24,106 nucleotides of DNA. Origin: Elsinoe ampelina (lineage: Eukaryota). The notes under the pieces are model-generated. The model was not told where the DNA came from, searched no databases, and worked only from the letters and a program-made list of their open reading frames with translations. Shown piece after piece: positions 1,897-21,489 of the stretch (the stretch's first letter is position 1; the number at the start of each line of letters is the position of its first letter). A program made the position numbers and the translations under genes. The DNA lies in the NCBI GenBank assembly GCA_010093995.1, contig ML992502.1, forward strand, positions 2,083,925 to 2,108,030. Reading direction: 5' to 3'.

Positions 1897-3095
1897 GGTG
1901 CGGGATCCAAGGGCACGATTGACCAAGGATAGTCGTCGACTGATTGTTTGAGAAGCTATGTTGGGCGAAGTAGCGACTGCTTGGAGGAGAAATGCTTGGT
2001 AGGAATGGGCACAGCTGTCCTACCTGAAGTCAGAGTGTATTGTCAGGGGAATTGCAGGTGAAGATGGATGTGTACCACTTTCAACATGACGGCATAGCTG
2101 CGACACTAGGAAAGCGAATCTCGGTGCAGCCGATCTCAGATCTGATGCGGCTCTGCTCTGCGAGAGGCTCGAGCTTCTCTCAAAGACGCATGTGGCTGCG
2201 TGGCAGTCTGGCTGCATGACATCTGCGGAAGAGGCGTGCGGAGACACGAACTGCATCCTTCTTCCATCAACCATGGCTACGCTCCAATCGTCAGCAGCGT
2301 GCTCTGAGGTGCCGTGTGGCGGTCAGACAATCGCCAACCATGCCGCTCTGGAGTTTGCCGGATGTGCAACCCCGCATTGACATGAGGCATCCTTGCGATA
2401 AGTACTTCATTGGAGGTTTCTATCAGGCTCCGGAGGAACACGCGGTCACTCCGGATGGCCGCATTGGAAGCGAGCACAGGACGATAGATCCATTACAGAA
2501 GCCTCGAGCAAGCAATCGTTTGTGTACCATTGGACTTATCAGAACGCTACATGCCCTTCGGTCTGCCAGCCTGATCACAGATTTGACAGTAGAGCTCGAC
2601 ACTTCACTGCTGCTTCATACGACGACGATAGCTCGATATGATGTGCGCTGTCAGACACGGCCATCTCTCGGCCTGAACAGGGCTGCGTGATATCACGTCC
2701 AAGCTCGCCATGAAATTAGTTCAGGTCGCTTAGCCTCAATTCGCGCCAATCAAAGAAAAGCTCATTTGCGGCAAAGCCAGCATCCTCTCTCTTCCGTCCA
2801 CGCCATCAACGCAAGCGGCATTTTGACAGCTCGCCATGCAGTAAACTAGCTCCAAACCTGCAGCTGTCAAACATGCTATGCCGAGATCAGTCAAGACTGC
2901 CATTCTTCTCTGACCTGCTAAATTGCATACTTTTGTCTCATCACGGCTGATCTGCTTCTGTATGGAAGGCCAGGGAGAATTCTTCCTGCAGATCGGGATT
3001 CGTAGGCTTGACTCGTCTCAAAAAGGTCTGACCGCCCTTGCGAACTCGATAGGTCTCTTCGTTTAATTTACACTACTGGGATCATCAACGCCGCC

Positions 3096-3998
3096 ATGCC
3101 TGGATTCAACGAAGAGCCATTAAGTCATGAAGAGTCCATGCAACTCGTACACTCGAAAATTGATGAGTGGACCAGATCACTGGAGAGGATCAACAGCACA
3201 GTGCAGCGATGGCGGGAATACCTCTCAAAACATCAAGAAAGTGAAGCACGTGACCAAGCCCCTCGCCTGACACGAACTCGGTCAGACTCATTGCAGTCTA
3301 TCAATGAAGAGAAGCACCACTTTACAAAGTCTACACAGATTCGATTCGAAGATACCCGATCAAGACGGCAGCCGAGTCCGACCAGCAGAACTCGTGAAGT
3401 GAAGCAAGTGGTCTTTTTCGATTCAACTTCTCAGAAGCAATTCGAGGAACTGGTCAAGAATGTTCAGTACGTGAGAAGCCGAGTACTCAGAACAATCGCC
3501 GTCAGCGAGCTCGCCGCCACGTCGCAATCAGTGAATGCAAAGCGCAGCGTTTCGAAGACTCTATCCCTCAGGACCGGTGGCACCACATCCAGGCCTGAAA
3601 CGGTCAAGGAGGAAATCAATCCGCTGGACAAGGATGTACGGCGACTCGAGTACTTGCTCAAACAGAGCATGGACCAGTGCGAAGAAGCAGCATATCAGCT
3701 TCTGCGGAAAGGAATTTGTGACGTCCAATTTCAGAATATCAGGAGACGGCTGAAAGAATGTTCGGAAATTGTAAGGAGTCACGTGGTAGCACTCACGCCA
3801 CCCCGGGCATTGTCAACTCGATCTGGCACTAGTCCGTCCCGGCCACCTACACAAAATGCAGCCACATCCGCTATAGAAGTACTCGAGGTCGACGATGAGG
3901 ACGATGACAGTGGCGATGAAGGTGAATTGGATGCTAAGCTCGACGCTCTGAGGCTCAAGTCGAAACAGATGGCGTCGAGGGTGCCCACGTCAGGATAG
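3096..3998 (+). CDS. Hypothetical protein, 300 aa, helical/coiled-coil, uncharacterised
   Basis: Intronless ORF with a good start context (GCCGCCATG). The blocks VFFDSTSQKQFEELVKNV and LKQSMDQCEEAAYQLLRKGIC resemble conserved uncharacterised ascomycete proteins. Acidic patch near the C-terminus. Confidence 0.75.
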   Translation: MPGFNEEPLSHEESMQLVHSKIDEWTRSLERINSTVQRWREYLSKHQESEARDQAPRLTRTRSDSLQSINEEKHHFTKSTQIRFEDTRSRRQPSPTSRTREVKQVVFFDSTSQKQFEELVKNVQYVRSRVLRTIAVSELAATSQSVNAKRSVSKTLSLRTGGTTSRPETVKEEINPLDKDVRRLEYLLKQSMDQCEEAAYQLLRKGICDVQFQNIRRRLKECSEIVRSHVVALTPPRALSTRSGTSPSRPPTQNAATSAIEVLEVDDEDDDSGDEGELDAKLDALRLKSKQMASRVPTSG

Positions 3999-4031
3999 TC
4001 AACGTCGTAATCTATACATGCTGTGAGGTAT

Positions 4032-4832
4032 CTACTTCGTCCTGACCTGCTTGAGCTTTCCCGGGCTGTGCACAAATTGAGTCGCGTATGCCTTGGGAAT
4101 GATCCTCCTCTCGTTTGGCTCCTGAACGAAGTACTCGTATCCTTGCTTCTGCGCAAATCTGATCGCATCGTCCTTGGAAGCAAAGCTGAGATGTGTGCCC
4201 TGCATGAAGTCTGCCGATGATTGCCAGCCCATCAAGGGGTTCTCCCATCTGTGTCCCTTTGATAGAATGTCCCAGTCCATACGCCATTGGTGGCCGTGCC
4301 AGTCCCCAGATTGCGTCGCGGTCTTAGCAGGACGGAAAATGCTATGATCAATATCAGCTACTGAGCTCGGTGAGGTTGGGAGGGGAAACAGACCGGACTG
4401 TGCGAGCTTGAAGGTCGGTTGGTGCTCCAGACAGCACAGCGGCTGGTACGTTATCGCCTGGCTCGCTGCCATCCATCACACGCATCGGTACTGGCGAGAA
4501 AGCACTATTATCGTTAGTCCCACCTCAAACGATGTCCGCTCTTCCACTGACGATGTTCGATAGTCGACTGCCACATTATAGTCTGGCGAATGCTTGGCCG
4601 CGCCCTCAGCTGGCCCCTCTTGCCTGATCAGAGCAGCCGATCCGGGCTTGTATCCAGGAGGCTCGGATGTCGAGGCGTGAGGTCGGTCTCGTTGCCCTCC
4701 TTGAGATGCGGGCGGGTTGTGTGCTTGGGTCTCCCATCTTACGGCGATGGAGCTGGTGTTGGCATTTGTACCTAGACGCAGTCGCGACGGCAGCGACAGT
4801 AAGCCCGATCGCAGAGGTCGAATGGCCGCCAT
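4032..4832 (-). CDS. NDUFS4: NADH:ubiquinone oxidoreductase accessory subunit NDUFS4 (21 kDa / AQDQ family), ~233 aa; exons 4832-4552, 4504-4394, 4341-4032
   Basis: Arg/Leu/Ser-rich mitochondrial presequence. The spliced product contains VLSGAPTDLQARTVRIFRPAKTATQSG and RWENPLMGWQSSADFMQGTHLSFASKDDAIRFAQKQGYEY. Introns 4551-4505 and 4393-4342 have GT..CTAAC/CTGAT..AG signals; total 702 nt in frame. Confidence 0.95.
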
Positions 4833-5002
4833 CTCGAATCTGGAGAGTGTGTGCAGTGCAGCTCAGTGGTAGTGAACATGGCAATCGAAGTTCGAGATCT
4901 TGGCTTCCACGTGATCTGCACAGACCAACGCCCTAATCAACCTCATCACTTCTTCAAGTCTCATAGGCACAGGAAACACTACGACCAAGCTCACACATCA
5001 CC
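4833..5002. promoter_or_regulatory. 170-bp divergent promoter shared by NDUFS4 and ATP17, containing CACGTGA (bHLH/Cbf1-type E-box) at 4908-4914
   Basis: The start codons at 4832 (-) and 5003 (+) face away from each other, and the E-box is near the middle. Confidence 0.55.
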
Positions 5003-6347: not shown

Positions 6348-9300
6348 ATGGCCTCTTCAGACACCCAAAATGTGGTGGTAAACTCCCAGTCGGTGGACGC
6401 TTCGTCCATCGACGCGCATGACAAGACATCCAATACTGCTTCCGCCGTCAACGGCACCTCCGAAATCTCCGCGCCCGCCGTACAAGAGCCCCCGAACACT
6501 GATACCGCCGATCTGAATGCGAACTCGACACTTGCAAATGGGAAGCTCTCCAATCCTTCACAGTCCTCGGACTTATTAGACGCACACGTAAATGGGAATG
6601 GGCAGCATGCAGATCATCTGAGCGTTGCGGACACAGCTTCGGTACAGGGGTCGGTGCCTGATTTTGACTCAAGAGATGCTGGGAGTGTCGGAGATGCGGC
6701 GATATCAGATACGGACAGTCGTGGTGACGCGGGCGAGCAGGGAAAGGATACGAATGGAAACATCAAATCTGGAGCTGTGAAGAAGCCGACTACGTTCAAA
6801 GCCGTCTCGGTGACCAAGAACTTCCTCGCCAAGACAGCGACCTCGACGCCTTCGGTCAAGGTGGGAGAGAAGCGTAAGGAGATATTCGGTCTAAGAGGGG
6901 CGGACACGAACTAACAATCATAGTCACGGCACCCGCAGTGAGCTCACCGCAGACTATGGCAAGACCTCGTCTGGTCGCAAAATCGGGCAGCGGTCTCCGA
7001 GATAGCCCTCGACCACGACCAGGGGCAGAAGGACCTTCAGAGGGAAACACGGTGTGGAATAAGAACCGACGTACGACTCGCTCTGGGCTTTGCGTTTTTG
7101 GCTACTAACACATCTCAGCCGCACCACCACCCCCTCCGAAGCAATTCACGGACGAAGAACTCAAGCAGCAATACGGGATTCATCTTGCATCACGCATACA
7201 AGCCGATGATGAAGGCTCTAAACAATCCAAGTGGGCTGACATGGAAGATGAAGAGGATGACTGGGCGCCAGAGACGATCGAATGGATGGACGGGACAAAG
7301 TCAAAGACGAATCCTGAGCCGGTACAAGCATCAAAGCCAGCAGAAGAGCCTCGACCTCTCGAAACGAAGACTAATATGACTCCGCTGAAACGACCAACGC
7401 CGACTGGACCCCCAAAGACCATTCTGCGACCCGGAGCTGCTCAACTAAGCAAGCAAGATGCATTGGGCGGAAAGGATACGCCAGAGCAGAGGGCTACCTT
7501 AGGTTCAAAGGCTTCTGCTGCTCCGCCTGTGAAATCACCATGGGCGACATTACCGCCAGTCGACAAATCGGTTCCGATGTTTCAACCACCACCTCCACCA
7601 GCACCAGCCTCGAAACCAGCTTTTGGCTCACAGGATGCTAGATTCATGGATGATGCGTCATCAGCAATACGCCATGAAATTGAGGCGGATACCTTCGACC
7701 GTTCCTGGCGGGATTCCAGCGGCCCACGAGAACTTTTCAACTCGCAATCAGGTCGCTATGAGCCAGCTCCTGAAGGTGGACGACGTGGATCTATGCGACA
7801 CGATCAAGGATATCGCCAACCAGCAGTCTTGCAACGACCTTCAGAAGAGGACGCTTCATCGCAGCCAAGGTCACAAGCGGAGGGCAGTCCTTGGAGCCGC
7901 CGACGGTCTAGTGTCAGTCATTCAGTGCAGAGTTTCGAGAGGCGGGTGTCGATTCCACCAAGCACGGATGCAGTCACACCATCGGAGAATCGCACTGGTA
8001 TTGTCATCGGCCATGACATTGGACCGCAGGGCAGGAAGTCTTCAGATGCAGCACAGAAACTTCAACAGCAGATCAACGATCGCAATGAGGAATTGGCAAA
8101 GCAGAAGAAGATCATGCAAGAGAAGCGGGAAGCGGCAATTCGTCGCCGGCGTGAGGAAGAAGAACGTGAGGAGGCCGAGCGTCGTGAGCGCATCCGCATC
8201 AAGCTCGAATCTCTCGGCATGTCGTTGCCTGACAAGAAGGAGTCAGAGGTGAAGGCCGAAAATGCGGAATCCCCGCAACAACAGGTTTCAACACCAGCCC
8301 CCTCACAAGCTATTTCGTCACCCGCACCTCCTGGTCTATTGTCACAACAATCGGAACAAAAGAACCATGAGCGACCTCACACCAGCCCTCTAAAGGCACA
8401 GCCACTTGAGAATGTGCGCTCGGACCCCGGCACTCAACATATACCTCCCCCTCAACAACCTCCTTTTGCAAACCAGGCAGTCCGTCCGACAGCGAATTTA
8501 CCGAGCAGGAATTTCCAAGACACTTCTGTCCCGGTCTCTTCGTACTCTTCTCCTGGCGAACAGAAAGCTCAACCAGGTTCTTTCAAATCACCAGCTCTCG
8601 TCGCAGATTCGTTTGCTACGTGGGGTACTCGCACTACCTCGGGTCACGCCTCGCCTGCATCCAACGTTTGGGGACCTCCGGGCGCAACAAGAGGCATTGG
8701 TAACGGCGCTTTTGACTCGAGCTTCTCCAGAATCCCACCACGTTTGCAAAATCAAAACATCATGGGTCAAGCATTTGGTCCGCAGAATAACCGCAGCCCG
8801 TCAGCCGGCAACCGCCAGCAGGAAACTTCACCAATGCGTCATCAGCAGATGCTGTCAGACCAAAATCTAGCTGCGCTTGGCCTGGTCGACACCCCGACTG
8901 ACAGCTTCCCATCAGCACCTTCTGCCGGGCCATCACCTATGCCTGCGCAAGCTCAGCCCGTCGCACTACCTCCGATCGGACCGCCTCCACACCGCCAAGT
9001 CAGCCAGCCATTCCAGCAGCAAGTTCCACCGCGCGGACCTGCATCTTGGGGTCATTACGCAGCTACGGCAGGCACTGAGCACCGTCCAGGCTACCCGCAG
9101 GCTCCCCAGCCTACCCACACCGGACCTGGACAACAGTGGAAGGAAACCTTCAAGCAGACCAAGGTCAGCAGCTGGACCGGAGCAACTCGCAATGTTGTGG
9201 TTGCCGAACCGGTTATCCACGCACAAACACAGGCTGGCCGGTCCGCACCGAGTCCAGCACCACCAGTTTCGCAAACTCAGCAACCAGCTGGCGCACAGGT

Positions 9301-10429
9301 TGCCGGGGATGACCAGGAGAGCACCGTCCGCCTTCCTACTGGCCCTGCTGCGTTCAAGAATCAGCCACCACAAGCGCCAATGCAGCAGCGTACTATGCCG
9401 AGCCTGCCGGCCCACCCCGTTGGTGGACACCAATCACGATTCTTCCCCATCGCCATTCAATACGGGTCGCCACCGCCCGAAGAGGCCAATCACCCTGCTC
9501 AGAGTGGTGACAAGGTCCATCCCAAGGTCAACTTGCCGCATCCCAAGCCAAAAGTCCGCCTGCCACAATCAGCTTCGCCGGCAGGTGTTCCAGGCGCACA
9601 GCCAAGTCCGGTCATCATGCCACAGCGCACACCGTCATACCGCGGTGTTCAGCCCCTCGTTCAGTCTTCCGACTGGCAAGCAAGGTTCAACGGACTATTC
9701 GGTAGAATCAGCACCACTACGGCTACTCCTCCATCGCCGCCCAAAACTCCGCCCAAGATGGACGCTATGCCATCTCCGGCTCCCATCTCGTCGTCCAAGG
9801 CGGATGTGTTCGAGGCTCCGGCGAACTTCTCGGCAACAGTCTCTCTACCAAGCAAACCTGGTGATGCAGCGCCTCAGCCTACCGGGCTGATTGTCAAGCC
9901 TTCTGCGGATGAGCTATTCGACGGCGAGTTGTCTTTCGGTTCTACTCCAAAGATCGTTGTCCCTCGCAACCCCAGCTACGAATTCGGCCCCGAGCGCAGA
10001 GGAATCCACATCCTGCGCATGTACCCCAATGCGAAATTTGATCGCCGTGTCATCTCACTTACCAAGGACTCGGACGTCGACAGCGATGACAATGTCACAG
10101 TCGCAACCATCAAACTATCATCGGAGGCAGACAGCAAGGAGGTTCCTCTACCACTGGCCATCACCAGGTCCAGGTTCAACGAAAAGCGCAAGCCATCAGG
10201 CAAGTTCGCCAAGTCACCCAAGATCGGATCAGAGAAGGAGAACGATGCGAGCCCCATCACCACACCCGTGAAGCTGGCAGATAGGATCGAAAAGACCAGA
10301 CCCAATCTCCAGAACAAGCCGACCCGCGGACCAAAGAGCTTCAGCAAAAGGGATGGTGAGCTCAAGTGGGCGCCCAAGACAGGCAAGGTCAGTCCAGCTC
10401 AGGCGACTGGTACACAGCAAGCGGCTTAG
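6348..10429 (+). CDS. Large Pro/Gln/Ser-rich, mostly disordered protein with a central charged coiled coil, ~1327 aa; exons 6348-6873, 6924-7070, 7119-10429
   Basis: Introns 6874-6923 (GTAAGG..CTAAC..TAG) and 7071-7118 (GTACGA..CTAAC..CAG) join the 188-aa and 1062-aa ORFs in frame. Conserved-looking islands: FKAVSVTKNFLAK, RPRLVAK, VWNKNRP, FTDEELKQQYGIHLASRI, KWADMEDEEDDWAPETIEW, RELFNSQSGRYEP, DWQARFNGLF. Confidence 0.85.
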
Positions 10430-12689: not shown

Positions 12690-13478
12690 CTATGATTCAA
12701 CGAATTCGCACCATTTTCCGGCTACCTCTCGGATACTGACTGTTCGTCCTTGCCAGCCTATTTCTCTGCTCGCGGCACCTTTGGCTTTGACGTTGGTGAT
12801 GGGGATTTGTTCGTCCCATGGCGATGGCGTTGCTTGTCGGTTGGTAGCGTCCTCGGCTTCGGCGAAGAGGTCGCCAACGTAGAGCGCTCGAGGGGTTTGT
12901 GGGACGCGGCACTCGGCGATGATCAGTCTTGCTCCAAGGTCATGCGCTGTTGAGACTGCGGCTGCGAAGAACCTGGTGAGTCCTTGTGCGGAGTAGGATC
13001 GGGTGCCGTCGTGTTGCGTGATTGGGTTTAGTACTGCGAGAAGGGGTGGGCCTGGGGAGTCGACGTTGCTGGTGGAGGAGGAGTCGCGCTTCAGTGGTAG
13101 TGAGGCGAGATATGCCAACGTGTGAGGTGTGCTTGGGCAGAAAGCGACCTTGAGTTTGCTGGCGGCGAAGAGCATATACAGAGTTGGTTGTAGGAGAGGG
13201 TGCTCTGCCAGTCTGCTTCTGTCTGCCTCGTCTTCGTCGAAATCTGGGTCGTTCATTTCGATGTCGATAGGCTGGTCTGCAGTGCCATGCTGCTTCGACA
13301 GCTTGTTGTCCGTCACGATGGCGTTGTACAGGAAGTGCATGAAGTCGTCTTTGGAGCTGCAGACGACCAGAGTCGACGACGATGTAGCATGTTTCACTAG
13401 GCTTTCCAGGACTCTGATCAAGGACGCGTCATCGAGTACTACGGACGCCGTGGTGTTCCAAAGTGACGTGCTAGCCAT
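12690..13478 (-). CDS. Conserved fungal hypothetical protein, 262 aa (alpha/beta pattern)
   Basis: Intronless ORF with motifs TLVVCSSKDDF, HPLLQPTL, KVAFCPSTPHTLAYL, SAQGLTRFFAAAV, WDEQIPI and WQGRTVSIREVAGKWCEF, typical of an uncharacterised Pezizomycotina family. Confidence 0.8.
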   Translation of the reverse strand: MASTSLWNTTASVVLDDASLIRVLESLVKHATSSSTLVVCSSKDDFMHFLYNAIVTDNKLSKQHGTADQPIDIEMNDPDFDEDEADRSRLAEHPLLQPTLYMLFAASKLKVAFCPSTPHTLAYLASLPLKRDSSSTSNVDSPGPPLLAVLNPITQHDGTRSYSAQGLTRFFAAAVSTAHDLGARLIIAECRVPQTPRALYVGDLFAEAEDATNRQATPSPWDEQIPITNVKAKGAASREIGWQGRTVSIREVAGKWCEFVES

Positions 13479-13656
13479 TGACGCATGTGGGAAATGTCCG
13501 AGTGAGCTGCTCCGACATTGTGCATCAAGATGGACTACTACCGAGCTGGGATAGCTACAGTATTTTGTTCAATAGCTTTCGTATGGTACCTTGCTTTCCG
13601 TATCGTGCAAAAGAGGACATGACATGAGTGTATGATCGATGTAATGGAGGGGATGA

Positions 13657-13798
13657 TGTTGTAATGGAAGGCTGGTACAGCTTCTCTGGTACTGAAGAAC
13701 TGGCACTGATGAGTCAGCGCACGTACAGTAGATAAATCGGTTACTGTAACTCTCTGAATGAAACACACGTCTCTTGATCCGATTTGCTAGTTATAACA
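13657..13798 (+). repeat. 5' LTR (142 bp) of a Ty1/Copia retrotransposon
   Basis: Begins TGTTGTAA and ends TTATAACA (TTACAACA with one RIP C>T), i.e. short inverted termini TG...CA. It is immediately followed by a copia-type PBS. Confidence 0.75.
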
Positions 13799-13810
13799 GG
13801 TTATAAGCCC
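13799..13810 (+). other. Copia-type primer binding site GGTTATAAGCCC (RIP form of GGTTATGAGCCC)
   Basis: Directly abuts the LTR CA end and matches the GGTTATG(G/A)GCCC PBS used by copia-like elements primed with an initiator tRNA-Met fragment. Confidence 0.75.
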
Positions 13811-14201
13811 GGCGCTTCTATAAAAGCACTTAAAGCTGTAGCAAATTAAGCGTGTTATTATTAAAAGGATTACTAAGCTGCCTATACTAAATTCTAGACT
13901 AGCTATATTAAGACAAACACTTGTAGTAGCCTGTATTAACCCTTTAATCTAATAGCTTAAACGGCTTAAACAAGCTAATTACATTAATTAAATTAATAAG
14001 CCTTTAGCTAATTACTATTATTATATCTAGATTAGCAAAAATGCTTAAGACTTAGATTCTTAAGAGAGAAAGTAACTATAATACTTAGAGATTAACTCTT
14101 AAGGTAGCTCTCCTTAAAAAGGATATACTTAGATATACAATTTATAGCATCGACTAGATACTAGTAGTTATAAAGCCTAAAGAACTAGCTCTAGATACTA
14201 G

Positions 14202-14218
14202 TAGAGTAGTTTTTAGGT
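14202..14218 (+). repeat. Left terminal inverted repeat of the hAT element
   Basis: TAGAGTAGTTTTTAGGT, preceded by the TSD GATACTAG. Confidence 0.9.
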
Positions 14219-14578
14219 TAGGTTAGGTACTAGAATTACTACCTATAACCTAACCTATAGCGATACTAGTACTTAAAGCTTGGTAACTGTAACTCTCTAA
14301 GCCTTAGGTAGTGTTACTTAGCCTTAGGTATATAGTTAGTTATAGTGTTACTTATAACACTACCTAATAGTACCTATAGGTACCTAAGAGTTAAGGAGTA
14401 GATATATATCTTAAGAACTTAAGATTTAGGAATTAAAATTTAAAAGTTAAAGGTTATAATTACATTTATTAATTACGCTAATCTTGCTAGTACCTCCTAT
14501 CTACTCTTATAGCCTACGCCTTACTTACTTATCTACCTTTATAGAATAATTGTCCTTACTATAAACTATCTAATTGTC

Positions 14579-15113
14579 CTAGTTATATATATTAAACTTT
14601 GTATAATAGCGACAAGTAAGCTATAAATCTTTCTAGTTAATAGTAACTTACTTAGCATAAATACAATTAAGGTTCATATCTAAGAATATTAGTATCTATA
14701 ATAGCATTAAATTTAAATAATAGATACCTTCTATATACCTAATAATAAATGCTTCTATTGCTTCCTAAAGTGCTTTAAGAGCTTTAGATTAGATATAAAA
14801 GCTTTTACCTTAATAAACATAGTCTTTAATAATCTTATAGACAAGGTAGCTAAAGAGAAGCTTATAGTAGAGAAGTTTAATTAACTTCTAGTAGCAATAA
14901 ATCTCTCGGAGAGCAATAGCTATATAGTATTAGTAATGTAACATAATAATTAATTGTAATAATTATACTACTAGCCTTAAACTTGTTCTTCTTTCTAGAA
15001 GCAATAGTTATCTTATAAAGTTACTTAGTAGTAGAAGCCTTAGGTCTACTAGACAACTTACTCTTATAACTATAACTATAGGTTAGTACTATAGTACCTC
15101 TCTTAGGAGGTAT
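14579..15113 (-). pseudogene. RIP-mutated histone H3-like gene inside the hAT; exons 15113-14969, 14919-14728, 14679-~14579 (~145 aa)
   Basis: Literal translation: ...RKKNKFKAST IALREIYCY*KLIKLLYYKLLFSYLVYKI...FYI*SKALKAL*EAIEAFIIRYIED MNLNCIYAK*VTIN*KDL*LTCR. Using only C>T/G>A reversions this becomes KFKAGTVALREIRRYQKS.ELL.RKLPFSRLVREI...RIQSEALEALQEATEAF.VG..ED.NLNCIHAKRVTINQKDSQLARR. Two 48-49 nt introns have TACTAAT branch sites. Confidence 0.9.
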
Positions 15114-15751
15114 AGTTACTATTACTACTAAGGATAGAGTCTTAGGAGGTACTTATAATATAAAGTAATCTTATAGTAGTAAGGGTAAGGTAGTAGAGGG
15201 TATAGAAAGTAACGAGGTAGATATAGTAGTAGTATAAAGAAAGATAAGTAGAAAGAGAAGAGGTAAAAGGGATAGAAGAAGAGAAATACGTAATAAGAAG
15301 AGAAATGTATAATAATTTAGTAGCTAGTAATAGCATAGCTAACAATAGGAATATAATATTATAATAGAAATATAAAATTAGTAAATTAGAAATATATAGT
15401 ATATAGAATACTTGCTTATTATAATATTATTTATAATAGTAAAGTATATAATATTAGATTTATTTAAACGCTTAGAAGAAGAGGAATCTAGACATTATAG
15501 AGTACTAATAATAAGTATATAATAATCTAGCGTAATAATACAATACTAATTTAGTATACTATAATTCTTAAAAACCTTACATTTTATATTTTATATTCTA
15601 CCCTAGCTACCTTATTGTTACTTTATACATAGTAGAAGGCTATATTACTCTTCTCTATTCTTCTTCTTCTTCTATTAACTTCCTTTTTTCTTGTCTCTAT
15701 TGCCTTTTTGTTTCTACGCTCTTAAGTTTAACTTTTATATCTTATTTTACT

Positions 15752-17095
15752 ATAGTAACCTCTCTAGATACTTCTATAGCTAATATACCTTCTAATACTT
15801 CTCCTAGTAGCTTTCCTAAGATTAAGAATAAGTTTAATAAGTTTAAAACTATAATAGAGATAATTATTATAGTGTTTTATTACGAGTATTAAGCTAATAG
15901 GTATAGGGCTTTAGGTCTAAGTAGGCTAAAATCAAATACTAGATCCTTTAGTATAGTTAAGGTAGCAAGGCATATCGTAGTTGTCTAACTAGTTTTAAAG
16001 CAGGTTTAAGTAAGCCTTTAAAGTAGAATATTTAGAATATTATACGCTAAGATAAAGATGCTTAATAGTTAGCTAAGGTTAAGGCACTTAAAGTAGCTAG
16101 AGATACTAATTGTAGTATAAAGAGGAATTTGCTTAAGAAGTTTAATATAAATACTTAAGTCTAGAACCTTAGTAAAGAAGCAAAGGTAGAACTCCTTATA
16201 GAAAAGATTAAGGAAATAGAGTAGCGCCGTTTCGACGCCTAGTAAAGCTATATAATTATACTACTATATTATCACATTTAACACTAATAGATTATAGATA
16301 AATAGCTATCTAGCAAGTTTAGAAAAGTCTATGTTAAATAGTAGCGCATTAGAAAATTTGCTATATGTTAAGAGTATATAAAAGTCCTTATAAAGGCAAA
16401 GGTAGCTTATACTACTAAGTCTAGCAAGGAGAATAACATGTTAAGAGTAGCTAAGTAGATATATAGTTCTAGCGGAATTCTCGAGAAGCTTAAGTATAAG
16501 ATCTATATAGCTAGCGCTACTAAGCTTACTATTAATAAAGGTACTAATAAGAATACTAAGAAGAAGTACTTAAAGTTTGTCTAGAAACTTAGTAAGGAGG
16601 GTAGGCTTACTACTATCTCCGATCCTAACTAGTAGTAAGTTCCCTATTATTATTATATATTATTATTACGTTAGTATACTAATAAATAGCAGAGCTTATA
16701 ATTCTATACCTCCGGCTAAGTATTAACTACTCGAGCTAATCTATCTTATAGATAAAGGTAAATATATAAAGCCTAATAACAATAACAAGTGTAAAGAAGT
16801 ATATAAGCTAGACTATAACTCTAAGATTAAGAAACTAGCTAATAAGTATAAGACAGACAAGTAGTATATAGAGTTTAAGAGGTTTTCCTCTAATAAGGAT
16901 AAGATTATTAATAAGAGAGAGAGGGTTAAAGTAGAAAGTTCTTTAGAGGGTAGAGATAAGGAGAAGAATAATAATAAGAATAATAATAAGAATAATAATA
17001 AGGATAATAATAAGGATAATAATAAGAATAATAATAAGGAAAGGGATAAGGAAATAGTCGATGCTAAGGAAGATAAATTTACTAGCTTTAACTAG
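15752..17095 (+). pseudogene. RIP-mutated cargo gene for a ~409 aa acidic protein with a long D/E C-terminal tail; probable exons 15752-16009, 16069-16634, 16690-17095
   Basis: One frame is maintained across introns GTAAGC..TAG (16010-16068) and GTAAGT..TACTAAT..TAG (16635-16689). All internal stops are TAA/TAG. The tail (aag aat/gat aat aat)n de-RIPs to EDDD repeats and ends EEMVDAEEDEFTGFD*. Confidence 0.65.
16960..17040 (+). repeat. 12-bp tandem repeat AAG(A/G)ATAATAAT, about 6 copies; RIP-altered GAG GAT GAT GAT acidic coding tract
   Basis: Directly visible, and in frame with the acidic cargo gene. Confidence 0.8.
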
Positions 17096-17199
17096 TAGAT
17101 TTTCTATACTATAATCAACTACTAAGTAGTTTAATCTATAGTATAGTCCGGCCCTTTTATAGATTTAAGTTTTATAATAAGATCTTTTCCTATATAGCT

Positions 17200-17869
17200 A
17201 CTATTATTATTTATGCTTCTAATTGTTACCTCTAATAATAGTAAATTATCTATATTATTACTTCTAACAATAGATTTCTATTACTATTGTTACTATAAAC
17301 AATAGGAGGTACTAGATATATATACTATCTCGTTCCTATTTATTCTTTTTTCTAAAACCTCTCTTTCTTATTATTATAGCTTCTCATGTATAACTCTATT
17401 CTAACTTAGAAGATCTAATCCTCTATTAGCCTTATACTATAACTTATAGTAACTACGCTAGGCTACTACACTTACGTTAGTATAAAGCTTATATCTACTA
17501 TATAACTAAGTAATTTATTAATAGTAAGGAAAGGTAGACTACTTATATCTATAATAACAATAGAGGCTTCGAACTTTGCTATAAGGCCTATTACTCTTAT
17601 AATACCCCTTATAACTTTATTAGTATTCCTAATCTAATACTACTATATTCTCTAATAAGTATTAGTACGACAGCTTCTAGACTAATAATATTTTTAACCT
17701 TATCGACATATAGCGTACACTTAATCGTTACTATCTTAATCTTATCCGGGATTAGATTACAATCTTTAATATACGCTATAGCGTTAAACGCTAGTAGGAC
17801 AAGCTAGATAATTCTAAATCCTAAGGATCTTAATAGTTCTAATTCTTCTAGTAACTAGTTTAGTAGTAT
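17200..17869 (-). pseudogene. Probable third RIP-mutated cargo gene of unknown function (3' end uncertain)
   Basis: The minus-strand frame from ATA(ATG) at 17869 de-RIPs to MPPNQLPEELEPLRSLGFRIIQLVPPAFDAVAYIEDCNLIPDEI.... Two candidate introns (GT..TACTAAT..TAG and GTAAGT..GCTAAT..TAG) preserve the frame. Confidence 0.45.
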
Positions 17870-18369
17870 AATATAAATAAAGCATTAGCGGGCTAATAGC
17901 TTTAGTAGGTTTTTTATAATATAGATATGCCTTTAATTTTAAAAATTTTCTACTCTACCCTAATATAGACATGCCTTTAATTTTAATTATGTTACCTATT
18001 CCTTAGCCCCTATATAATATAAGTCTAGCCTATAGAAATTAATATACCTCTTACTTTAAAGTTTCTATAGTATAGTATAGGATTTATTATTACATATTAT
18101 AAACACGTTAATAAATATTCTATAATAAGTTATCTACCTTTATTAAATAATATAATCTATACTAATTAACATATCTAGAGCTTCTAACTCTAAGTTAGTA
18201 CTTAACCTATAACTTAGAGATACTATATATTTCTCTCTAGCTATTCTAGCAGAATTACGTAGCTTTATAATCTCCGCTTAGAATGTTAGACGCAATAGTA
18301 GAATACAACAATTATAACTCCTTAAATGCCTGCCTTTTTAATCTAGTAAGAGATTTAAGAATTAACCTC

Positions 18370-20800
18370 TATAATAAGCCTAGAAAGACTAGTAGAGTCG
18401 AATAATTATAGTATCTATATATAAAGAAGGCACGAAAATTGTACTAAATTAGAATTCTAAAGCACGTTCTAGAGGTCTATAGGCAAATATCATAGAAGCT
18501 ACTAAGATTTATAATAGAGAACTATAAGTTATTTATAATAGGTATAGTAATATACTTACTTATTCTACTTACTGTTATACTAGTAATAAAGCAATAGAGA
18601 GACATCTTAAGTCTTAGAAATACACTATAGTTGTTAAGTACTGCTATAAGTAAAGCTCTACCTAAAAAGCCCTTAAGCAATTATAATAGTATATAAAGAG
18701 TATTTACTAAATTATCTCTCTATTCTCTACTAATATCTTCTACTATAAGCTTATTCGTATAGTTACTAACTATAACTAGTCTTTCCGCATAGTTAAGCGT
18801 TCTACCTTTAGCTAATTCCTCTACTTCCTTCGACCTAATATTACTATACCTAGCTAGACTCTTTTTTAAGTAACACTAGTAGTATAATTTAAAAGGTTAT
18901 AAAAATTACTACTCTCTAACCTCGGTAAGAACACTAAGCTTTTAATAGCGTTAGATAGATAGTCTACTAATAACTACTTAGGGTTTATTATAATTAAAGG
19001 CTATTTTATTAATAACTAATAGCAATTACAAGAGTAGCTCCTAGAAATAACACCCCTTTAAGGTTGCTACACTAGTAAAGCTATAGCAAATAAGGTAATA
19101 TAGGTACTAAAAGATGTATCGGTTAAGTAATAACTACTTATAGTTATAGCAGATAATATATTAAATAATAAAACACTCCGAGAGTCTCTCGAAAGAAGCC
19201 TAGGTACACTAGATATTAAGTAGAATATAAAGGAGAATATAATTCTATACCTAGTATATATTATTAATCTTGTTATATAGGACATTATTAAGCATCTAAA
19301 ACTTAAGACAAGCAAAGAGATTAACATAGTAGAGAGGTTATAAAACTACTATATCTAGAATATTATAATATTAGTCTCTGTTCCGAATTTACTATAGAAG
19401 GTATATAACATTTATTACATTGTTTTATTACGTCCTAATATTAGTAAGCTCTATGTAATATATATTATAATTAATAGTTCCCTATAATAGTTTAAACAAT
19501 TTATAGACCTCTAGAAGCATCTACTACCTAAGAAGAGGTACTAAGTTATATATAATGTTAAGACACGCTAGAATTTAACATATAATATATATAAGCAAGT
19601 ATTAAAGCTTAAACCTTTTATTAAGAATTAGCTCGAGAATAAGACTATACTCTAAGTACTAAGAACTTCTTCTAAGGTATTAATATCTAAACTGCTCTCT
19701 AACATTAACAACTATAACTTTACTAAGTTATTACTTAATCCGAATAAGTAGTAGTATCTTAAATCTATTATAGTAATACTAGAGAACTTTAAGAAAGTAA
19801 TAACATAGCTAAGTACTAGTAGCTAACCTCTTCTCTAGCATATATAGACGATGTATAATGTACTCTTTAACTTCTTAGATAAAATTAAAAAAGGCCTAAT
19901 TAGCACTAAGAATTATAACAATCTACCTATATAGCTAGCTACTATATAAAAGGTAGTAGTAAAAGGACAAGAGAAGCTTAAGAAATACTATATATAAACT
20001 AAGGATAGGAAGGACATACTCTATAACTATATAACAATTCTTAACCTCTCTAAGAAGCTTATAGTATATAATATAAGCGCCTATAGTCTTTCTAGTAAGT
20101 AGTAGCTAATAACACTTAGGATATAGAGACTTAGAAACCTTACTATAAAGACAACTATTATAAGAAGTTCTTATAGTACCTTTGTTAGTATAATAAGATA
20201 GACCCCTTAATTGCTTTACTAGCCTCTACCTCTAAGCTATTACGTCACTAGTAACGAGACTAGTTTAACTAACCGAAACGAAAGAAGTAAGATTATACCC
20301 TATTACTATAAAGCGATAGTCTATACTTCTTATTTATTCCCTCGAAGCGTACTATAGTTAAAGAAGGTAAGGACTACCTTACGACACTACTAGTCTATAT
20401 TTAGAAACTCGATGTCTTATAGTAGTAGAAAGAGAAGAAGGAAGAATATCTATTACTATTACGTATAGCAAAAGATATTCTAGTAATTCTAATTATAGGG
20501 GTTAGAGTCGAGTAAGTGTTTAACATTATAAAGAATATTATTAGTGCGCGGAGGCATAAATTAGTAGCCTAAACTATTTAGTAGCTTATAATGTTAAAGT
20601 ATAAGCTTAAAGCAGCTTTACTATTAGGACAAATTAATATAGAACTAGAGATAGAGGATAAGGCTACTAATACTAATAATTTGCTTAAATTGTTATTAAG
20701 GACTAATATAAATTAACTAGACAATATTACTATAGTACTAAGCTATAGTAATAATAACTACTCTAAATTAGAGAGAGAAAGAGTATAGGGAAGTTAATAG
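18370..20800 (+). pseudogene. hAT transposase, RIP-mutated (boundaries approximate)
   Basis: De-RIP motifs: BED-like MERHLKSQKH (~18595), first catalytic D SIALDGWST (~18943), GHFIDNQWQL, second D TADNA (~19146), PCLAHIINL (CxxH, ~19245), DVKTRWNST (~19555), and the hATC dimerisation domain DVLQWWKEKKEEYPLLSRMAKDILAIPIAGVGVERVFN (20411-20524). Confidence 0.92.
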
Positions 20801-21283
20801 TATTCTAGTAGAAAGCGTTAGCAGATTTACTAGCTAGATTATATTTGTACTTCTAGTATAATTTGTATATTTTGCTTACTACCTCCCCTTACGTAATAAA
20901 GTAGCGTAATAAAGTTAGGCCTAAAAATTTGTAAGGTATAGTAACGCGCTAAGCTATAGAGTAAGNNNNNNNNNNATAAGGCTACTAATACTAATAATTT
21001 GCTTAAATTGTTATTAAGGACTAATATAAATTAACTAGACAATATTACTATAGTACTAAGCTATAGTAATAATAACTACTCTAAATTAGAGAGAGAAAGA
21101 GTATAGGGAAGTTAATAGTATTCTAGTAGAAAGCGTTAGCAGATTTACTAGCTAGATTATATTTGTACTTCTAGTATAATTTGTATATTTTGCTTACTAC
21201 CTCCCCTTACGTAATAAAGTAGCGTAATAAAGTTAGGCCTAAAAATTTGTAAGGTATAGTAACGCGCTAAGCTATAGAGTAAG
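20658..21283. other. Assembly gap (10 N at 20966-20975) flanked by an identical 308-bp direct duplication (20658-20965 = 20976-21283)
   Basis: The two copies read identically and meet exactly at the N run, as expected for unmerged overlapping contig ends. Confidence 0.85.
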
Positions 21284-21464
21284 TGCTTTAACTACTAACC
21301 TATTAGGTACTATTAGGCAGGTACTAGGTTAGGTACCCCCCCCCCTAAGGGCGACACTACAACTATATACTAACCCTACCTACCTTAGTATAGTACCTAA
21401 CCTAGAGCAACCTCTCTCTACTAAGCTTTTATACCTAACCCCTACCTAATATAGTGCTATATCT

Positions 21465-21481
21465 ACCTAAAAACCACTCTA
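21465..21481 (-). repeat. Right terminal inverted repeat of the hAT element
   Basis: Reverse complement is TAGAGTGGTTTTTAGGT, followed by the TSD GATACTAG. Confidence 0.9.
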
Positions 21482-21489
21482 GATACTAG

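Follow-up and report, generated by a model that had tools for sequence, protein, structure and literature searches.

Does a histone gene carried by a fungal transposon descend from the centromeric histone CenH3 of its host or from canonical H3? This question is raised by a 24,106-nt stretch of Elsinoe ampelina DNA (contig ML992502.1; the whole stretch is called the window below), in which an earlier interpretation of the bare sequence (the sequence-only reading) recognised a histone fragment with CenH3-like diagnostic features. The fragment was taken to be the cargo of a mobile element and was suggested to derive from, or to mimic, CenH3.

A RIP-degraded hAT element

The mobile element is a RIP-degraded hAT DNA transposon of 7280 bp (14202-21481). 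Its left terminal inverted repeat (TIR), TAGAGTAGTTTTTAGGT (17 nt, 14202-14218, plus strand), pairs with the right TIR (21465-21481, minus strand) at 16 of 17 bases, the sole mismatch being A/G, and a perfect 8-bp target site duplication, GATACTAG, flanks the element at 14194-14201 on the left and 21482-21489 on the right. A remnant of the transposase, the hAT C-terminal dimerisation domain (Pfam PF05699), was detected at 20372-20602 on the plus strand and scores 25.2 bits, the cut-off being 21.4 (E 1.5e-5); outside this domain the transposase is unrecognisable and riddled with stops. The short TIRs, the 8-bp target duplication and the dimerisation domain together identify 14202-21481 as a hAT element.

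The GC content of the window drops from 53% to 27% at about 13.5 kb, and the RIP signature of the element is clear, with a TpA/ApT index of 1.81 and a (CpA+TpG)/(ApC+GpT) index of 0.26, compared with 0.49 and 1.32 in the flank. The element is present in high copy number. On 13300-20650, 3045 contig pieces were aligned from run X1 and 6466 from run X12, and their differences are nearly all transitions (255 transition versus 4 transversion places in run X1, and 283 versus 28 in run X12). The run X1 contigs that match up to 14203 carry on as window 21491 onwards, which indicates that the hAT element sits within another repeat. This different repeat, comprising 13546-14201 and 21482 onward, was the target of the hAT insertion; its summed run X1 contig depth is about 60,000-110,000, versus 2,000-5,000 for the hAT element. 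The 13650-13800 part of the target repeat is also found in run X6 and in run X3, a run guessed to be RNA, whose coverage reaches only about 14077.

Two further repeats were observed within the element. A 318-bp tandem duplication (20657-21283, plus strand) has a 300-nt core that is 100% identical despite the heavy RIP of the element around it, and either postdates the RIP episodes or is an assembly artefact. A repeat with a 12-nt period, AAGAATAATAAT (16950-17057), consists of N/K-rich low-complexity codons in the plus frame upstream of the transposase remnant.

Structure of the H3-like gene

The histone gene, an H3-like pseudogene (H3L), occupies 14579-15092 on the minus strand and is broken by eight in-frame stops, each either TAA or TAG. 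Its exon 1 (15092-14969) opens with a putative ATA start at 15092, which would derive from ATG; exon 2 (14919-14728) coincides exactly with the fragment first noticed, and exon 3 spans 14679-14579. Both introns lie on the minus strand in phase 1 and have the form GT..ACTAAT..AG; intron 1 (14968-14920, 49 nt) interrupts the T45-equivalent codon and intron 2 (14727-14680, 48 nt) the D106-equivalent codon. The ACTAAT motif in both is the RIP form of the branch site ACTAAC. With the two introns spliced out, a RIP-aware alignment of H3L runs colinearly along the whole of H3. The gene is located 380-890 bp inside one end of the hAT element, near a terminal repeat, and reads outward. Its position between the TIRs bears out the view that the histone is cargo. 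The window contains no second copy of H3L, which is the sole histone-like match in six frames, and the copy in the window is dead and mutation-riddled.

The Pfam Histone match to H3L has an E value of 0.0032, under the gathering score, while PDB H3 chains match H3L colinearly over 63 residues with E values of 1.7e-6 to 3.6e-4; the histone assignment is weak but real. The low Pfam score would also be expected of a chance H3-like frame in AT-rich DNA with no gene remnant behind it, an explanation that we consider rejected in view of the 63-residue colinear match, the three colinear exons, the restriction of stops to TAA and TAG and the singularity of the match in six frames.

Canonical H3 has a near-invariant sequence, and H3L does not fit it. 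Across H3 positions 45-135, 39 residues of H3L are identical to H3, 27 are RIP-reachable and 25 of 91 are unreachable when a plant-type H3 serves as the reference, about 5 of the 25 being reachable from fungal H3 as judged by eye; three extra codons are present in addition.

Loop 1 and diagnostic codons

The codon observations that had suggested a CenH3 were all reproduced. Loop 1 of H3L (14798-14830, minus strand) reads I K D Y V Y * G K S F and has 11 codons as proposed, versus 8 in H3; it is bounded by the REI-equivalent TAT AAG ATT at 14839-14831 and by the R.QS-equivalent at 14797-14786, and the RIP-aware alignment places a 3-codon insertion in it. Because no indel is among the contig differences listed for 13950-15632, the 11-codon loop is probably common to the element copies, although their sameness is not proven thereby. 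The Q68-equivalent codon AGC (14849-14851, minus strand) can have only S or G codons as RIP ancestors, and the F84-equivalent codon ATC (14792-14794, minus strand) only A, I, T or V codons, so that Q and F are excluded, in agreement with the sequence-only reading. The T107-equivalent ATG is indeed ambiguous; its ancestors may encode A, M, T or V, and T is thus possible (ACG). RIP is compatible with xQKDxQLARR, the terminus previously read, as the origin of the C-terminal codons N * K D L * L T C R.

CenH3 proteins are recognised by a longer loop 1 and by the absence of the residues numbered Q69, F85 and T108 in the literature (PMC4359364, PMC7598501). H3L has the longer loop and lacks Q68 and F84. 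As to T107, its ATG may come from ACG, and the fungal CenH3s in Fig. S3 of PMC3029354 retain T, so this residue does not discriminate in fungi. A divergent tail had also been named among the criteria for CenH3, and H3L does not show it; its tail is of H3 length and colinear with H3. The RIP-aware score of this tail against that of H3 is 78. Shuffling the codon order gives 54.6 +/- 9.5, with 8 of 500 shuffles at 78 or more, and none of the element's 174 other stretches attains 78. These values lend modest support to a tail that would be colinear with H3 from the putative ATA (ATG) onward.

Comparison with fungal H3 and CenH3

The Pezizomycotina rows of Fig. S3 of PMC3029354 (Yun and Nishida 2011), a set with no Dothideomycete, served for a manual comparison with H3L. 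An 11-residue loop 1, the length found in H3L, was counted by eye in the CenH3 rows of Neurospora, Magnaporthe, Botryotinia and Sclerotinia, and a 13-residue one in that of Aspergillus. Pezizomycotina CenH3s (rows H3_2/H3_3) have A or S at position 68, EAAEAF and MQKD, and H3L is similar; S68, A95, F99 and Q121 of H3L are CenH3 states and not Pezizomycotina H3 states, S68 being found in the CenH3s of Botryotinia and Sclerotinia (PMC3029354). Moreover, QGEG, with which loop 1 ends in Botryotinia and Sclerotinia CenH3, is a possible pre-RIP state of the H3L loop end * G K S, against a background of 16 QGEG-reachable sites in 14538 codon starts. By hand count over positions 83-131 (alpha 2 to alpha 3), CenH3 fits 36 of 49 residues and H3 34 of 49.

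Other parts of the gene are closer to H3. Over positions 45-75 (alpha N to alpha 1), canonical H3 is compatible at 29 of 31 residues and three CenH3s at 23-27 of 31 (hand count). The Pezizomycotina CenH3 hallmarks W84 and D59 are not RIP-reachable in H3L, nor is K49 of CenH3, and neither the long PGDP-containing tail nor the GVWGG C-terminus of these CenH3s is matched. The introns also differ in place, at sites 12 (tail) and 22 (L70) in Pezizomycotina CenH3 genes and at the T45 and D106 codons in H3L; intron 1 of H3L lies 2 residues from site 18 of Aspergillus canonical H3.

In the PDB, the top matches to H3L are H3.1 chains carrying the CENP-A loop 1-alpha 2 (31.6 and 27.3 bits), compared with at most 26.3 bits for H3 chains. 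The best 60 of the 173 PDB matches include neither native CENP-A nor Cse4, and the loop 1-alpha 2 part alone has no significant match to the PDB.

Relation to published hAT elements with H3-like genes

The window element belongs to a known hAT/H3-like transduplication kind, as it carries an H3-like gene between its TIRs, and it is the same kind of element as those in Pyrenophora, Cercospora, Pseudocercospora and Sphaerulina. According to Manning 2013 (PMC3538342), a Pyrenophora tritici-repentis hAT element with a dimerisation domain bears an H3-like gene, as the window element does, and that gene, which the study set beside CenH3, matches neither H3 nor CenH3 completely. The Pyrenophora copies are described there as intact, nearly identical and expressed, in contrast to the RIP-dead copy in the window. 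In P. fijiensis, 9.5-kb hAT elements hold 784 RIPped H3-like copies, and such elements also occur in five relatives (Dhillon 2019, PMC6710886); no nucleotide similarity was reported between the Pyrenophora and Mycosphaerellaceae element groups in that study, which takes the H3-like gene to be a retrocopy of canonical H3 that lacks introns and whose text has no occurrence of "cenh3", "centromer" or "cenp-a". Among the matches listed in a literature search on H3-like genes, hAT, transduplication and centromeres, only these two studies were relevant, and a search joining Elsinoe, histone H3, transposon and RIP found none.

The window element resembles the elements of Dhillon 2019 in its TIRs starting TAGA/TAGAG and the 8-bp duplication of its target site, in the H3-like gene placed by one end and reading outward (Czm, Peu), in a (GGTTAG)n...(CTAACC)n subterminal motif (by eye), and in being RIPped, high-copy and confined to an AT-rich block. 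It differs in length, being 7.3 kb with only one H3L copy as against 9.5 kb, and in loop 1, which has 8 residues in the Czm and Peu consensus and 11 in H3L.

The consensus sequences of that study (supplementary file 2 of PMC6710886) were compared by eye and not by computed alignment. In the Czm and Peu consensus, GT..AG introns interrupt the T45 and D106 codons in the same phases as in the window, and intron 2 measures 52 nt in Czm and 48 nt in both Peu and the window. One copy in Spo has intron 1 at the window site and the second is intronless, as are the H3-like copies of Smu and Pmu. The "16-residue insertion" described for second copies would, by inference, be a 48-nt intron. The introns in the published consensus elements stand in contrast to that study's own conclusion of an intronless retrocopy. 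Loop 1 in the family has 8 residues in Czm, Peu, Pmu and Spo copy 1, 11 in the window and 13 in Smu, the last resembling Aspergillus CenH3, and both Smu and Pmu show EA.EAF and QQKD. The Peu gene retains Q68, F84, Y99 and T107, and the Czm tail motifs GKAPRK and GVKKP are canonical tail motifs (by eye, PMC6710886).

The hosts differ as well, being Mycosphaerellaceae in Dhillon 2019 and a Myriangiales-like Dothideomycete for the window. A 1062-residue open reading frame in the flank of the element (7241-10426, plus strand) has PF27955 relatives throughout the Dothideomycetes. Its protein is 73% identical to Elsinoe (best named match Elsinoe fawcettii), 64% to Sphaceloma and 56% to Myriangium, but only 33-36% to Cercospora and Pseudocercospora (Mycosphaerellaceae), which places the host outside the published clades.

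Protein searches for further relatives yielded no intact close one. A word-based search with the RIPped exon gave 47 candidates and no scored match, and a HMMER search gave 15 matches at E <=0.001, of which the 7 examined are repeated or fused canonical H3. A search for CenH3 with canonical H3 returned H3 clusters only, and tandem canonical H3 dominated a length-filtered CenH3 search (of 8000 matches, 120 were listed). In a metagenome scan for intron-bearing fungal H3 genes, all 80 kept loci were intronless.

Origin of the transposon histone

The published P. fijiensis reading, applied to the window, would make H3L a recent intronless retrocopy of host canonical H3, captured by a hAT element and blurred by RIP alone. 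It is the conclusion drawn in the Results of Dhillon 2019 (PMC6710886), and 66 of 91 fold positions of H3L are indeed H3-identical or RIP-reachable. Nevertheless, splice and branch signals mark two introns in the window copy, and the 49-nt length of one is no multiple of 3, which contradicts an intronless origin for this copy; the 25 of 91 positions and the 3-codon insertion lie beyond RIP (from the plant-type reference, with about 5 of the 25 reachable from fungal H3), and the consensus files of the same study contain introns at the same sites (by eye). This reading is therefore very improbable for the window. Because the gene position and the two introns are shared with elements of another order, H3L appears to be a gene long kept by the transposon and not a retrocopy.

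A derivation from CenH3 was upheld only in part. The cargo histone may come wholly or partly from the host centromeric histone, for example as a recombinant of an H3 tail and alpha N-alpha 1 with a CenH3 loop 1-alpha 2, and may once have marked or targeted element chromatin. The loop of 11 residues, S68, A95, F99, Q121 and the reachable QGEG speak for such an origin, as do the H3/CENP-A chimeras at the top of the PDB matches, the slight CenH3 edge over alpha 2 to alpha 3, and the EA.EAF and QQKD shared by Smu and Pmu with the long loop of Smu. Against it stand the H3-like tail and alpha N-alpha 1, the unreachable W84, D59 and K49, the lack of native CENP-A and Cse4 among the best 60 of 173 PDB matches, and introns unlike those of the sampled CenH3 genes, a sample with no Dothideomycete. 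In the sister genes that share the introns, loop 1 has 8 residues, and Peu has Q68 and F84 as well; the Pyrenophora H3L falls in neither H3 nor CenH3 according to Manning 2013 (PMC3538342). Taken together, a CenH3 origin is possible but doubtful. The loop 1-alpha 2 part is the centromere-targeting part of an H3 variant and decides its chaperone and chromatin destination. A stronger proposal, that H3L is a natural H3/CenH3 mosaic, a transposon-encoded variant kept with its introns across Dothideomycete orders for shaping the chromatin of the element or its landing sites, seems unlikely to us, and the earlier idea that the histone steers the element toward centromeric or AT-rich chromatin is speculation. 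Since the copy in the window is dead, any chromatin role would belong to the past of the family.

The explanation that we favour, with about an even chance of being correct, is that the fragment is exon 2 of a RIP-killed H3L, a resident hAT gene with a canonical-type H3 ancestor that evolved fast within the transposon and gained its CenH3-like loop by drift or remodelling. The anatomy of the gene, its cargo status, the RIP, the high copy number and the shared intron sites are established; as to ancestry, past function and timing, we infer that a canonical-type H3 was most likely acquired by a hAT element long ago. The transposon would have retained the gene over a long time, with rapid change wherever the canonical constraint was lost, and the loop 1-alpha 2 part may have drifted or been remodelled until it satisfied the criteria by which CenH3 is spotted; in the end, RIP would have inactivated H3L along with all copies. 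Family members that share both intron sites have 8 residues in loop 1, and Q68 and F84 are retained in Peu, so that the CenH3-like traits may have arisen within the transposon lineage. The CenH3-type traits are real and concentrated in loop 1-alpha 2; elsewhere H3L, like the related genes, favours descent from an H3 of canonical type.

In summary, H3-bearing hAT elements extend to a further fungal order, with the gene position and both introns as in the elements of another order. Fungal transposon-borne histones have so far been read as accidental captures of housekeeping genes. With its CenH3-length loop 1, H3L turns a past manipulation of chromatin by such elements into a concrete, testable question, and the mosaic reading, if true, would make H3L a transposon-encoded histone variant instead of a passenger gene.
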